Made by a program: the position numbers and the translations under genes. Source: Oscillospiraceae bacterium (GTDB lineage Bacteria > Bacillota > Clostridia > Oscillospirales > CAG-272). Taken from it: 64,000 bases of DNA. Where the stretch lies: contig SVRP01000006.1 of the NCBI GenBank assembly GCA_015064735.1, positions 38,037 to 102,036 of the forward strand, written 5' to 3'. Shown here piece after piece: positions 19,348-22,058 of this stretch. How positions within the stretch are numbered: the first letter of the stretch is position 1; each line of letters starts with the position of its first letter. Under the pieces are notes generated by a model, which saw only the letters and a program-made list of their open reading frames with translations, was not told the DNA's origin and made no database searches.

Positions 19348-19376
19348 TTGATTTTTATTATTTTATGTGGTATAAT
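19348..19376 (+). promoter_or_regulatory. sigma-A promoter of tRNA-Ser
   Basis: TTGATT-N17-TATAAT with extended TG. Confidence 0.8.
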
Positions 19377-19391: not shown

Positions 19392-19483
19392 GGAGAGATG
19401 GCTGAGCTGGTCTAAGGCGCACGACTGGAAATCGTGTGTAGGCTAATACCCTACCGAGAGTTCGAATCTCTCTCTCTCCGCCA
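19392..19483 (+). tRNA. tRNA-Ser(GGA)
   Basis: Acceptor GGAGAGA/TCTCTCC-G-CCA, anticodon arm CACGA-CTGGAAA-TCGTG, long variable arm, GTTCGAATC T-loop. Confidence 0.97.
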
Positions 19484-19517
19484 AAAAATCCTCGTTCTTC
19501 GGAACGAGGATTTTTTT
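19483..19517 (+). terminator. terminator after tRNA-Ser
   Basis: AAAAAATCCTCGTTC-TTCG-GAACGAGGATTTTTTT. Confidence 0.85.
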
Positions 19518-19713
19518 ATCCAAGCCGCAGGCTTGGTATATCATCGCCGCACGAAGTGCGGTGCATATCATCAAGGGCGGCAAGCCGCCCTTGTATCTCA
19601 TCACGCGCCAGCGTGCATTTCCCTGCGGCTTGATGATATACAATGCTCCGCATTGATGATATACCGCAACAAGTTGCGGATGATATACACGCCTTCGGCG
19701 TGATTGGGACGCG
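19515..19713. repeat. modular multi-hairpin interspersed repeat, copy 1
   Basis: Near-identical to 20343-20575 over the first ~120 bp and last ~50 bp; hairpins separated by TATATCATC/GATGATATA-like linkers. Confidence 0.92.
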
Positions 19714-19749
19714 CAACCAAATTCCCACCCTCAAATTCCCGATTTGCAG

Positions 19750-19778
19750 TTGATTTTTGGGCGAAAATATGCTATAAT
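19750..19778 (+). promoter_or_regulatory. sigma-A promoter of the 19802 gene
   Basis: TTGATT-N17-TATAAT with extended TG. Confidence 0.75.
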
Positions 19779-19801
19779 AAACACAGAAAGGCGGTGGGGA
19801 G

Positions 19802-20254
19802 ATGAAATTTAATACATATGATAGGACACCAAGGATAAAAACACAAAAATGGATTAAAATATTTCTGATTTCATTTTTTGTATTCTTTACCGCCATTATG
19901 TTGTTTGTGGGAATCATAATATCAATTGATAATCAGAGTATATTCCCAATTCTCATCACCGTTATATCTCTTACGTTTGTCGCATTCATGGCGAGTATGT
20001 ATATTTATAATGCATATAAGGCGTATTTTGAAATTGATGCAACCACAATTAAATTGATTAGTTACCCTTTTTTCAAAAGGCGTGAAAAAATCTTTTCGTT
20101 GAGTGACATCAAAAAAATAAAGCGGCGATATGGAGGTCGAGTGGGAATCTCGTATCTCATATTTATAAATCAACAAAACAAGGTTTTGTTTCAAACCATG
20201 AATGTCCCTGAAATAAAATCCTATTTTGAAGGTTTAGGCTTTAATCTTGAATGA
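19802..20254 (+). CDS. AT-rich hypothetical two-TM membrane protein, possible bacterial PH-like C-terminus
   Basis: Two hydrophobic helices then a beta-rich basic tail (FSLSDIKKI); visibly more AT-rich than flanking core genes. Confidence 0.7.
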   Translation: MKFNTYDRTPRIKTQKWIKIFLISFFVFFTAIMLFVGIIISIDNQSIFPILITVISLTFVAFMASMYIYNAYKAYFEIDATTIKLISYPFFKRREKIFSLSDIKKIKRRYGGRVGISYLIFINQQNKVLFQTMNVPEIKSYFEGLGFNLE

Positions 20255-20298
20255 TAAAGTAGGCAATCGTCTATGTATCAAAATTACAGTTATTTGCC

Positions 20299-20344
20299 AA
20301 CAAAAACAGAACATTTGTCTACCGACAAATGTTCTGTTTTTGTT
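20299..20344 (+). terminator. terminator with perfect 21-bp inverted repeat
   Basis: AACAAAAACAGAACATTTGTC-TACC-GACAAATGTTCTGTTTTTGTT. Confidence 0.8.
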
Positions 20345-20575
20345 TATCCAAGCCGCAGGCTTGGTATATCATCGCCGCACGAAGTGCGGTGCATATCATC
20401 AAGGGCGGCAAGCCGCCCTTGTATCTCATCACGCGCCAGCGTGCATTTTGCCTGCGGCTTGATGCAATAAGGGCGTAGCCCGTCATTCGCCGAAGGCATA
20501 TACAACACTTCGTGTTGGTGATATACCGCAACAAGTTGCGGATAATATACACGCCTTCGGCGTGATTGGGACGCG
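20343..20575. repeat. modular multi-hairpin interspersed repeat, copy 2
   Basis: Direct repeat of 19515-19713 with different central hairpin modules at 20465-20520. Confidence 0.92.
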
Positions 20576-20591
20576 AGATTGCGGAAAGTTC

Positions 20592-20620
20592 TTGAATTAC
20601 TTTGCAAAATATGATATAAT
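20592..20620 (+). promoter_or_regulatory. sigma-A promoter of the 20721 gene
   Basis: TTGAAT-N17-TATAAT with extended TG. Confidence 0.75.
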
Positions 20621-20720
20621 GCTTTCGAGGTAAGTGATTGTATGGCTAAAAAATATTTATTGATCTATTCGGAGCAACTTGTTTGCTGTGCCGCCTCAAT
20701 CTATTAAAAGGAGTAAAAAT

Positions 20721-21326
20721 ATGAAAAAAGTACTATCTTTAATCTTGGTATTTGTATTTCTTTTTTGTTTTACATCCTGCTCATTTTTTAACCGCTTCAA
20801 AGGCGATATGAGTAAAATTGATTTCGATGAAGATAAAAATTTATTGTACAGCGGGAACACGTATTACCGTGCAGACGATCGCTTTACGGTTTGGACAGAT
20901 GAAGATGTGGTTGAAATTGGATGGCACTCTCAATTCCCCTTTTTCCCCGATATGCACTATTATGTTTTTAATGACGAAAACCCTTTATTCATTTTCTGTG
21001 CCAATGGAAAAAGCAGTGTGTATTTCAGTTTGTTTTTCAGGTCGGATTATGATCTTTACGGTGCCGTATACACGGTCAATAATACCGACATTGAGATAGT
21101 TCTTAACTCTGACATATTGCCAAGCGACGTCAACGCTTCCGCAATAAAATACGAATATTCGCAGCAATTCCACATGCGCTTAAAGGATGACTCCCGTGTT
21201 CGGGTAGAGTTCTCGGGACCGTATAAGCATGGCGATAACTGGTATTTTTTGCACTCGGACAATGCTTGGCTCTTAAGCGACCAATTTGTTACGATGTTAA
21301 TAAATAACGGTATTATAAACGAATAA
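20721..21326 (+). CDS. hypothetical lipoprotein
   Basis: AGGAG RBS, MKK signal peptide with lipobox FTSC; aromatic-rich mature part. Confidence 0.75.
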   Translation: MKKVLSLILVFVFLFCFTSCSFFNRFKGDMSKIDFDEDKNLLYSGNTYYRADDRFTVWTDEDVVEIGWHSQFPFFPDMHYYVFNDENPLFIFCANGKSSVYFSLFFRSDYDLYGAVYTVNNTDIEIVLNSDILPSDVNASAIKYEYSQQFHMRLKDDSRVRVEFSGPYKHGDNWYFLHSDNAWLLSDQFVTMLINNGIINE

Positions 21327-21346
21327 TTCTTGTATTATTTCAAACT

Positions 21347-21382
21347 AAAAGAACTGCTTTGCGGTAGCAAAGCAGTTCTTTT
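21347..21382. terminator. bidirectional terminator
   Basis: AAAAGAACTGCTTTGC-GGTA-GCAAAGCAGTTCTTTT. Confidence 0.8.
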
Positions 21383-21386
21383 TCTG

Positions 21387-22058
21387 TTACATCACATAAA
21401 ATATCACAGCCATTGAATGGCAAAGACTGCCGATGACGGTAAATATATGGAATACCGAGTGAAAATACCTTTTCTTCACCGAAAAGAAGTAAACTCCGAA
21501 TGTATAAAACAGTCCCCCAAGAAGAACCAGCATAAACCCTTTGTGTCCGAGACTTCTATAGGTTTGCGGAATCGAAAACACAACAGCCCAGCCCATTGCG
21601 ATATAACATATCATGCTGAACGACTTATACTTTTTCAGGTCAATGGCATTCAGCGTCATCGCCAATATTGCCGTTCCCCAGACAAGAGCAAAGGTTCCCC
21701 ATGCGGCAAGCGGATAATCTTTCGCCACCGAGCATACAAGAATGGGAGTATAAGTTCCCGATATGAGAAAATATATAGAACAGTGATCCATTATCTGAAA
21801 CACCTTTTTCGCCGTATTCGGACGCAGTCCGTGATAAATGCTTGACATGGTATACAGAGTTATCATGGAAAGTCCGAACATAGCTCCGCAGAGCACTCCC
21901 ACTGTTTTTCCGTTAAATGCCGATATCACCACGCAAAGCACGAGGGTTATTACCCCCACAGCTCCGCCTACTATATGACTTACCATATTGAATATCTCTT
22001 CGCCCTTGGTATAAAAGGGTAAAATTCTGTCCTTCAGCACTACTCTTTTTGTTAACAC
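21387..22058 (-). CDS. hemolysin III / PAQR family membrane protein
   Basis: EEIFNMVSH, SSIYHGL, DHCSIYFLISGTYTP, HSVFHIF. Confidence 0.92.
   Translation of the reverse strand: MLTKRVVLKDRILPFYTKGEEIFNMVSHIVGGAVGVITLVLCVVISAFNGKTVGVLCGAMFGLSMITLYTMSSIYHGLRPNTAKKVFQIMDHCSIYFLISGTYTPILVCSVAKDYPLAAWGTFALVWGTAILAMTLNAIDLKKYKSFSMICYIAMGWAVVFSIPQTYRSLGHKGFMLVLLGGLFYTFGVYFFSVKKRYFHSVFHIFTVIGSLCHSMAVIFYVM

Follow-up and report, generated by a model that had tools for sequence, protein, structure and literature searches.

Mirrored hairpin arrays behind tRNA genes of gut Clostridia and their candidate partner, an Avd-like four-helix-bundle protein

The 64,000-nt stretch of Oscillospiraceae DNA analysed here (the window; contig SVRP01000006.1, positions 38,037 to 102,036) carries, downstream of a tRNA-Ser(GGA) gene, two copies of a hairpin-rich repeat, each followed by a promoter and a small gene. 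This raises the question of what the repeats are and whether they delimit exchangeable one-gene cassettes, as the first-pass annotation had proposed with integron sites in mind. Comparison with other genomes, most of them incomplete metagenome-assembled genomes (MAGs), suggests that the two repeats may well be orphan copies of a mirror array, a row of hairpins joined by one word that is inverted between the two halves, and that this array is the cis element of a module with a gene for an Avd-like four-helix-bundle (4HB) protein. In its best-supported composition the complete module would consist of a bidirectional terminator, the array, a promoter and a 115-aa 4HB gene. The repeat family appears to be undescribed and points to a new gene-capture or gene-control module of gut Clostridia. 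The cassette picture is correct in outline, in that the units are self-contained, anchored at tRNA genes and variable in content, but the integron mechanism attached to it is not supported.

The partner gene and its linker word

The first open reading frames (ORFs) behind 53 arrays fall into 42 clusters, 41 of which are singletons. The recurrent partner, present in 12 of the 53 positions, is a 115-aa protein (MAKNYLLIYSEQLAT...) assigned to PF05635 (Avd-like 4HB), for which it scores 68.4 bits (cut-off 33.8). Among solved structures the closest is that of an uncharacterised protein, PDB 2RLD (E = 1.6e-16), and the homology of the 115-aa protein to Avd is that of a small helical-bundle fold (PF05635 / cd16375); PF05635 is a large family, termed uncharacterised in papers on it. 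Copies of the 4HB protein from three bacterial families share 91-96% identity, and in each family the gene adjoins the array. No other recurrent neighbour was found within 4 kb of 65 arrays, where the top clusters were spurious ORFs crossing the array itself. The source genome (G000; 2.1 Mb, 95% complete, 44.6% GC) has one intact cognate copy, at C29:45136-45480 behind tRNA-Val. The window holds a remnant at 20642-20707, whose first 13 codons match the intact gene (12/13 residues) and whose sequence is unrelated from there on, leading into a lipoprotein gene. Since the window thus keeps the promoter type and the first 13 codons of the 4HB gene, array 2 appears once to have been a complete module. 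A second, canonical PF05635 gene of the source genome (C7:83861-84169, 132.9 bits) has neither mirror array nor tRNA gene upstream.

The pairing of protein and word was analysed in 52 genes of the 4HB clade from 41 genomes, 46 of which have at least 250 nt of upstream sequence; a mirrored word was defined as a 7-mer occurring at least four times upstream, in both orientations. A mirror array precedes 44 of the 46 genes, and a tRNA gene lies within 400 nt upstream at 23 of these 44 loci. Among canonical PF05635 control genes from other orders of the phylum the corresponding counts are 6/29 for a mirrored word and 0/29 for a tRNA gene. Within one array all words agree and the hairpins differ, while between subfamilies all words switch together with the protein. 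Each 4HB subfamily has a linker word of its own, for example GTATATCATC, GATTACAT, ATGAAAT (the word of the catalogued Gut-1 motif), ATGAATT and GTTATGA, with GTGATAT, ACTTCAC, ATGAAGC, ATATCGC and TCATTTG in further subfamilies. Sharing of the word declines with amino-acid identity, from 83% of pairs at 80% identity or above to 24% at 60-80%, 2% at 45-60% and 0% below 45%. At 60% identity or above 53 pairs share their word, against a permutation mean of 8.7 and maximum of 20 (0 of 2000 permutations reach 53), in statistics that ignore phylogeny. Such covariation is what a protein and its recognition site would be expected to show. In two loci of other orders (L328 and L329) canonical PF05635 genes are preceded by direct 7-mers (TAGTTGG eight times and ACTAGTA seven times), which may be another kind of word array.

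Islet layout, array anatomy and tRNA placement

The features of the tRNA-Ser(GGA) islet are the following (window coordinates).

19348..19376, + strand: promoter of tRNA-Ser, TTGATT-17-TATAAT with TG ahead of the -10 box
19392..19483, + strand: tRNA-Ser(GGA), CCA encoded, the islet anchor (tRNA model, 55.9 bits)
19483..19516, unstranded: bidirectional intrinsic terminator 1, directly after CCA; A-tract, 9-bp stem, TTCG loop, T-tract
19517..19713, + strand: mirror hairpin array copy 1, 197 nt (core 19517-19705)
19750..19778, + strand: promoter 1, of the 150-aa gene, TTGATT-17-TGcTATAAT
19802..20254, + strand: cargo gene 1, a 150-aa orphan protein, 30.7% GC, with hydrophobic membrane-like stretches judged by eye
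20299..20344, unstranded: bidirectional terminator 2, AACAAAAACAGAACATTTGTC / GACAAATGTTCTGTTTTTGTT, 21-nt arms, 100% complementary
20345..20575, + strand: mirror hairpin array copy 2, 231 nt (core 20345-20567)
20592..20620, + strand: promoter 2, TTGAAT-17-TGaTATAAT, of the conserved type that drives the 4HB gene at other loci
20642..20707, + strand: remnant of the PF05635 4HB gene, a 21-codon ORF (MAKKYLLIYSEQLVCCAASIY*) between promoter 2 and the lipoprotein gene
20721..21326, + strand: cargo gene 2, a 201-aa protein, 38% GC, with a lipoprotein-type signal peptide by eye (MKKVLSLILVFVFLFCFTSC)
21350..21384, + strand: terminator 3, closing the islet, convergent with the HlyIII gene
21387-22058, minus strand: core HlyIII gene

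The order terminator, repeat, promoter, gene and terminator, read twice behind tRNA-Ser in the first-pass annotation, was recovered with every feature at its position. The direct repeat does start within the T-tract of the upstream terminator in each copy, and both TTGAnT-N17-TG-TATAAT promoters are present with TG ahead of the -10 box; promoter 1 starts 37 nt past the shared repeat and 45 nt past the GTGATT end of the core. The reported lack of an integrase and of a duplicated tRNA 3' end also stands, as no tyrosine recombinase lies near any array of the genome and the tRNA 3' end has no second copy within the window. Terminator 1 is a perfect inverted repeat with 15-nt arms, 100% complementary, and its hairpin recurs after tRNA-Gln(CTG) in contig L393; similarly, the hairpin type of terminator 2 is also found after tRNA-Trp and after another cargo gene, in contig C6. 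Neither the 150-aa protein (no family above cut-off) nor the 201-aa protein has a Pfam family, and 400 genomes of the order yielded no more than three weak homologues of the 150-aa gene. One 150-aa homologue, 31% identical, lies directly behind tRNA-Ser(CGA) in another family (L217; G037:C3, ~10.1-10.8 kb).

With at most one mismatch allowed, the window contains 13 occurrences of the word GATGATATAC, where 3.2 would be expected and none of 100 shuffles attains that number; the two repeats account for 11 of them. The array opens with TATCCA and a hairpin, H1. Its left half consists of three units of a GC-rich hairpin followed by (T/C)ATATCATC, i.e. hairpin plus GTATATCATC; the centre, CCTGCGGCTTG, is complementary to the 5' arm of H1, and the right half holds at least three units of GATGATATAC followed by a hairpin (three in copy 1). 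Across copies the array ends in GTGATT, as in copy 1, or in CTTGATT. The site is composed of 7-9 separate hairpins joined by a 10-nt word, and because either strand, when read, gives the hairpin-GTATATCATC modules first, the array is a pseudo-palindrome. The left 110 nt of the two window copies (19511-19620 and 20339-20448) are 99% identical, falling to 87-91% beyond that point and to 82% over the whole units. Copy 2 carries a 34-nt insert at ~20465-20498 that adds two hairpins, and compensatory changes distinguish the copies in one right-half hairpin (AATGCTCCGCATT vs AACACTTCGTGTT).

Folding of the repeat gives z-scores of -4.9 (RNA) and -5.9 (DNA). Stems of at least 4 bp are present in 141 of 158 distinct inter-word spacers from 74 copies, with 665 Watson-Crick pairs vs 26 others, and 15 of 47 consensus pairs keep pairing through two-sided changes in an alignment of 18 sequences. 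The hairpins are drawn from a limited repertoire and shift position between copies. Folding also predicts a "ladder" in which the three left words pair with the three right words; the words themselves are invariant and one pair is broken in 5/18. On its left the array always abuts a terminator T-tract, and on its right the flanking sequence varies. Hallmarks of miniature inverted-repeat transposable elements were not seen, as the two ends, TATCCAAGCC... and ...GTGATT, have by eye no more than ATC-AAG in common and no target-site duplication was noticed. At three loci (L033, L131 and L167) the H1 loop holds a nested insert of ~45 nt (GTAGGGGTTCCCCGAAGCGAGC...GGGGGTTCC), which may be a second, smaller mobile hairpin.

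The source genome has ~10 array copies. Six are located directly behind a tRNA gene and its terminator (Ser-GGA, Arg-ACG, Val-GAC, Trp-CCA, His-GTG and Leu-CAG), and the remaining four lie 0.8-4.6 kb downstream of a same-strand tRNA gene, those of the window and of C6 directly following small cargo genes. Distribution is patchy, with arrays in 17 of 41 relatives including members of other families at 77-85% identity. When species genomes were scanned for the pattern, more than 118 stretches emerged, mostly in herbivore-gut MAGs, and the array-bearing MAGs are labelled Acutalibacteraceae, Oscillospiraceae or Clostridia. Among 54 well-resolved copies with enough upstream sequence, from ~60 MAGs, a co-oriented tRNA or tmRNA gene lies within 100 nt upstream in 30 and within 400 nt in 38, and at least 15 tRNA species are involved. 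Such positions make up only ~0.1-0.2% of a genome, as estimated from 37 tRNA genes in 2.1 Mb. With 30/54 copies this close to a tRNA or tmRNA gene, the repeats do not lie equally often after the terminators of core genes, the finding by which the first-pass annotation would have abandoned its proposal. Every array has a terminator before it and a co-oriented promoter and gene after it. No array matched among 50,697 phage records, and of 26 pattern hits in IMG/VR one is a true array, located after the 3' end of a tRNA-Arg.

Several observations concern tRNA 3' flanks more broadly. A mirrored 6-mer is present in 18 of the 37 tRNA 3' flanks of the source genome vs 7% of random 330-nt windows. Other word-array classes follow tRNA terminators in this genome at C23:58337 (tRNA-Gln-TTG), C29:144175 (tRNA-Tyr), C2:10140 (tRNA-Asn), C20:34762 (tRNA-Arg-CCG) and C29:71295 (tRNA-Leu-CAA); two of these five are of the Gut-1 type with GTGAAAT and three are TTCACT repeats without hairpins. 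The C-terminal stump of a 4HB gene lies behind the Gut-1-type array on C23 (C23:57964-58026). Long-palindrome tRNA terminators of the source genome reach into the acceptor 3' strand (e.g. GGGAGCCA ... TGGCTCCC) at C26:261 (tRNA-Asn), C20:34531 (tRNA-Gln-CTG), C3:53682 (tRNA-Met) and C7:73908 (tRNA-Cys), and since the palindrome includes the acceptor strand, an inverted copy of the tRNA end lies behind the terminator. At four loci (L028, L029, L105 and L241) a direct 17-45-nt copy of the 3' part of the tRNA is found just before the terminator and array, with the intact tRNA 180-270 nt further upstream; these copies look like att-type duplications left by earlier insertions. Bases 1-70 of the public metagenome contig ERZ27248306:k141_309422 (L078) are Illumina adapter sequence.

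Exchange at the arrays and competing explanations

Gene content at these loci is variable. The first-pass annotation had asked whether AT-rich orphan genes also accompany other copies of the repeat, and they do: the non-recurrent ORFs behind arrays have a mean GC content 6.1 points under that of their locus (lower in 27/33), in contrast to control ORFs, which lie 2.6 points above. An excess of envelope proteins among the cargo was not seen in a crude hydrophobicity test (14/33 vs 52/121 controls). The tRNA-Ser(GGA) site has six different contents in six species, the source species included, and the tRNA-Val(GAC) site carries a mirrored-word array in ~10 of 26 species, with at least six word classes. 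Within the species, contigs are 99.5-100% identical from the centre of array 1 rightwards and vary on its left side. In one strain, 99.75% identical, the gene, the terminator and the left half at array 1 are all different, and a second strain keeps tRNA-Ser and has a terminator of the copy-2 type and a different left half that is one module longer. The invariant gene content that would have counted against the cassette proposal is thus not what these strains have. No deletion variant without the 19802 gene was found among sets of 23 and 6 contigs.

Differences between strains end inside the array, at breakpoints that are not the same from strain to strain, and no fixed crossover site was seen. 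Across 37 arrays, Spearman coefficients of only -0.03 to 0.25 relate the identities of terminator, left half, right half and downstream flank to one another. This near-independence indicates that arrays are mosaics and exchange junctions that lack one fixed crossover site. Relocation is exemplified by an identical 4HB protein found behind tRNA-Val(GAC) in the source genome and, in L393, behind tRNA-Gln(CTG). Its two gene copies show 15 differences, every one of them a synonymous change at a third-codon position, and the L393 islet has a different terminator and a reshuffled array in comparison with the C29 islet. No identical tRNA-Val allele, as a sign of tRNA co-transfer with the islet, was present in 400 genomes of the order.

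A synteny comparison for empty sites gave no clean empty/occupied pair, because divergence within the genus is too great and the genes of tRNA-Ser and tRNA-Val flip orientation relative to their neighbours. With the same flanking genes, tRNA-Val(GAC) faces uvrB in the source genome (C29:43771-46000) and points away from it in five genus relatives, and tRNA-Ser(GGA) switches side and orientation relative to the HlyIII gene among relatives; the loci compared were C29 with L299, L302, L306 and L319, and window 19392-22058 with L051, L061 and L065. The tRNA-Val islet of L392 has a different upstream neighbour, from ~60 nt before the tRNA.

From these patterns a mechanism can be proposed tentatively, as a possibility that we would not yet favour: an Avd-like 4HB clade free of reverse transcriptase would read the word of its subfamily between hairpins conserved in structure only, and protein and array together would form a gene-capture element homing to tRNA and tmRNA genes, with the arrays as joints for adding and swapping promoter-bearing cassettes and for moving them from one tRNA locus or bacterial family to another. 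In the reading given at the outset, which may well be right, the 4HB protein would recognise the linker word, and the hairpins may hold the words evenly spaced or single-stranded. At the joints, units of promoter, gene and terminator could stack and be exchanged behind the tRNA gene, by recombination or gene conversion at or between words together with horizontal transfer, and an integrase would not be involved. For the window this suggests that array 2 was formerly part of a full module whose 4HB gene was replaced from codon 14 by the lipoprotein gene, and that the addition of array 1 and the 150-aa gene took place on the side facing the tRNA. C29 carries the only intact cognate 4HB gene, which could act in trans on both arrays, either in DNA movement or in promoter control.

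A number of points weigh against linking arrays, 4HB gene and capture in this way. As the array adjoins the gene, co-descent contributes part of the association between protein and word. A >90% cognate 4HB gene is present in only 5 of the 17 array-positive relatives, many of them incomplete MAGs, so that arrays persist without it. The homologue of the 150-aa gene in G037 has a similar promoter -10 region (AAAATATGCTATA) but no hairpin array, and its position behind tRNA-Ser implies that arrays are not required for placement on the tRNA side. The two cargo genes of the window are constant in same-species contigs, which differ on the tRNA side alone. Nor do the arrays take their orientation from GC skew (positive for 4 copies, negative for 6), which gives no support to a lagging-strand single-stranded route. 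To our knowledge, recombinase chemistry has not been described for a 115-aa helical bundle.

A purely regulatory role would account for part of the same evidence. The array would be an immobile platform for control and insulation, with the 4HB protein as an autoregulator binding six words upstream of a built-in promoter; cargo that replaces the 4HB gene would inherit the control, and islets would owe their spread solely to horizontal transfer and to homologous recombination of the ordinary kind. The -35 box does come from the last module in many copies (CCTTGATT-17-TGnTATAAT), and the invariable position of the array ahead of a co-oriented promoter and gene, the covariation of protein and word in the manner of repressor-operator pairs and the lack of any recombinase linked to arrays are all consistent with this role. 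Operators, however, need no structure-conserving hairpins between them, and control alone explains neither the tight placement at tRNA and tmRNA genes, with more than 15 different tRNA species, nor the identical protein behind different tRNAs. Moreover, the copy-1 promoter, 37 nt past the repeat, resembles that of the array-less homologue. We regard control without mobility as rather unlikely.

Alternatively, the array could be a structured non-coding RNA related to Gut-1, arising as a 3' trailer of the tRNA through read-through, or else from a promoter that escaped recognition, and the 4HB protein might bind it. The covarying hairpins fit such an RNA, as does the polarity of G.T wobbles in the left half, with 19 on the tRNA-sense strand vs 3; the right half lacks this polarity (1 vs 3). 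Gut-1 (RF01706), rated a likely RNA in the passages on it by Weinberg et al. (PMC2864571), has the same hairpin-word architecture and matches sister arrays with the UGAAAU linker. Against an RNA gene stand the strong bidirectional terminator directly upstream, the terminator-array interval devoid of a promoter and the position of the promoter downstream of the array. The pseudo-palindrome, of which the Gut-1 model matches one half per strand, would also be unusual for an RNA gene, and in Rfam scans of the window at E <= 1 and at E <= 10 no family matches the arrays. A non-coding RNA is therefore quite unlikely.

The integron-like scheme of the first-pass annotation, with folded single-stranded sites, a site-specific recombinase and ~830 bp circles, agrees with one-gene units separated by structured repeats, with variable, orphan-like cargo and with strain differences that stop inside the array. 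It is contradicted by the enzymes, as the genome has three Phage_integrase matches only (C26:65.5 kb, C14:34.2 kb and C7:88.9 kb), all away from arrays, and no IntI-like gene, and a search within 4 kb of 65 arrays gave no recurrent recombinase family. Each unit is served by a promoter of its own, the site is multi-hairpin, breakpoints vary between strains, array segments assort almost independently and the 19802 gene is in every contig examined. The integron-like scheme is accordingly very unlikely. Spread as selfish palindromes of the REP/BIME or REPIN kind (repetitive extragenic palindromes, their mosaic elements and hairpin-forming doublets) by a REP-associated tyrosine transposase (RAYT; IS200/IS605-type Y1 HUH), which the dispersed, mirrored palindromic units after terminators might recall, is extremely unlikely, since G000 has no Y1_Tnp match (PF01797) despite its ~10 arrays and 95% completeness, arrays and Y1 genes show no association among 41 relatives (both 7, array only 10, Y1 only 10, neither 14; 7.05 expected for both), copy number is low and the arrays are tied to tRNA genes and to another protein family.

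A link to diversity-generating retroelements (DGRs) was likewise rejected: reverse transcriptases are found in 6 of the 17 relatives with arrays and in 5 of the 24 without (11/41), template and variable repeats not having been searched for, and the sole reverse transcriptase of G000 (C23:145.7 kb) is on a contig without an array of this class.

Known systems

In the literature searched there was no description of mirror arrays paired with a PF05635 protein or of their tRNA placement. The pairing of protein and word, the failed RAYT test, the strain mosaics and the case of one protein behind two tRNAs are new here. If the module reading holds, it would offer the first functional handle on PF05635/Avd-like proteins outside retroelements; as part of a gene-capture element the family would gain a first function and a readable code of protein-to-word recognition, and the natural protein-word pairs could become orthogonal sequence-recognition parts. 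It would also make the orphan Gut-1 motif one word-class of a larger family, and would show how gut Clostridia can accumulate small accessory genes downstream of tRNA genes with no integrase involved.

In an integron the attC site is a single imperfect hairpin (R''-L''/L'-R') that has a GTTRRRY core and a fixed crossover point, and the cassettes are promoterless and read from the promoter Pc. Integron arrays and clusters of attC sites lacking an integrase (CALINs) resemble the present islets in their rows of small, variable orphan genes with structured repeats between them and in strain differences that end inside a repeat. They differ in having IntI, a single attC hairpin, an attI anchor and a common Pc, in contrast to multi-hairpin words, a tRNA-terminator anchor, a promoter and terminator per unit and no fixed crossover here. 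REP, BIME and REPIN sequences are similarly mirrored extragenic palindromes after terminators, with many non-coding copies for a single-copy protein gene, but their partner is a RAYT; the arrays have a 4HB protein, low copy number, tRNA placement and an attached promoter and cargo. The intervening sequences of 23S and 16S rRNA also encode PF05635 proteins at a stable-RNA gene, with function unknown, and unlike the arrays they sit inside rRNA helices. The Avd protein of DGRs has a homologous helical-bundle fold, from which the array modules differ in that no reverse transcriptase is nearby or tracks the arrays.

The nearest catalogued object is Gut-1, in which, as in the arrays, hairpins of free sequence alternate with a fixed short word, and which likewise occurs as two mirrored halves in uncultured gut Clostridia. 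It is listed as a motif known solely from human-gut and other environmental sequences, and the passages on it give no function, tRNA link, promoter, partner protein or cassettes (PMC2864571). Its linker is UGAAAU vs GAUGAUAUAC in the arrays. The Gut-1 covariance model has no match in the window arrays (E <= 10) or in the main arrays of 20 other loci, where it matches only a sister array with the UGAAAU linker (58.7 and 48 bits; gathering score 50 bits). Gut-1-type arrays nevertheless follow tRNA terminators in the source genome and precede a 4HB subfamily of their own.

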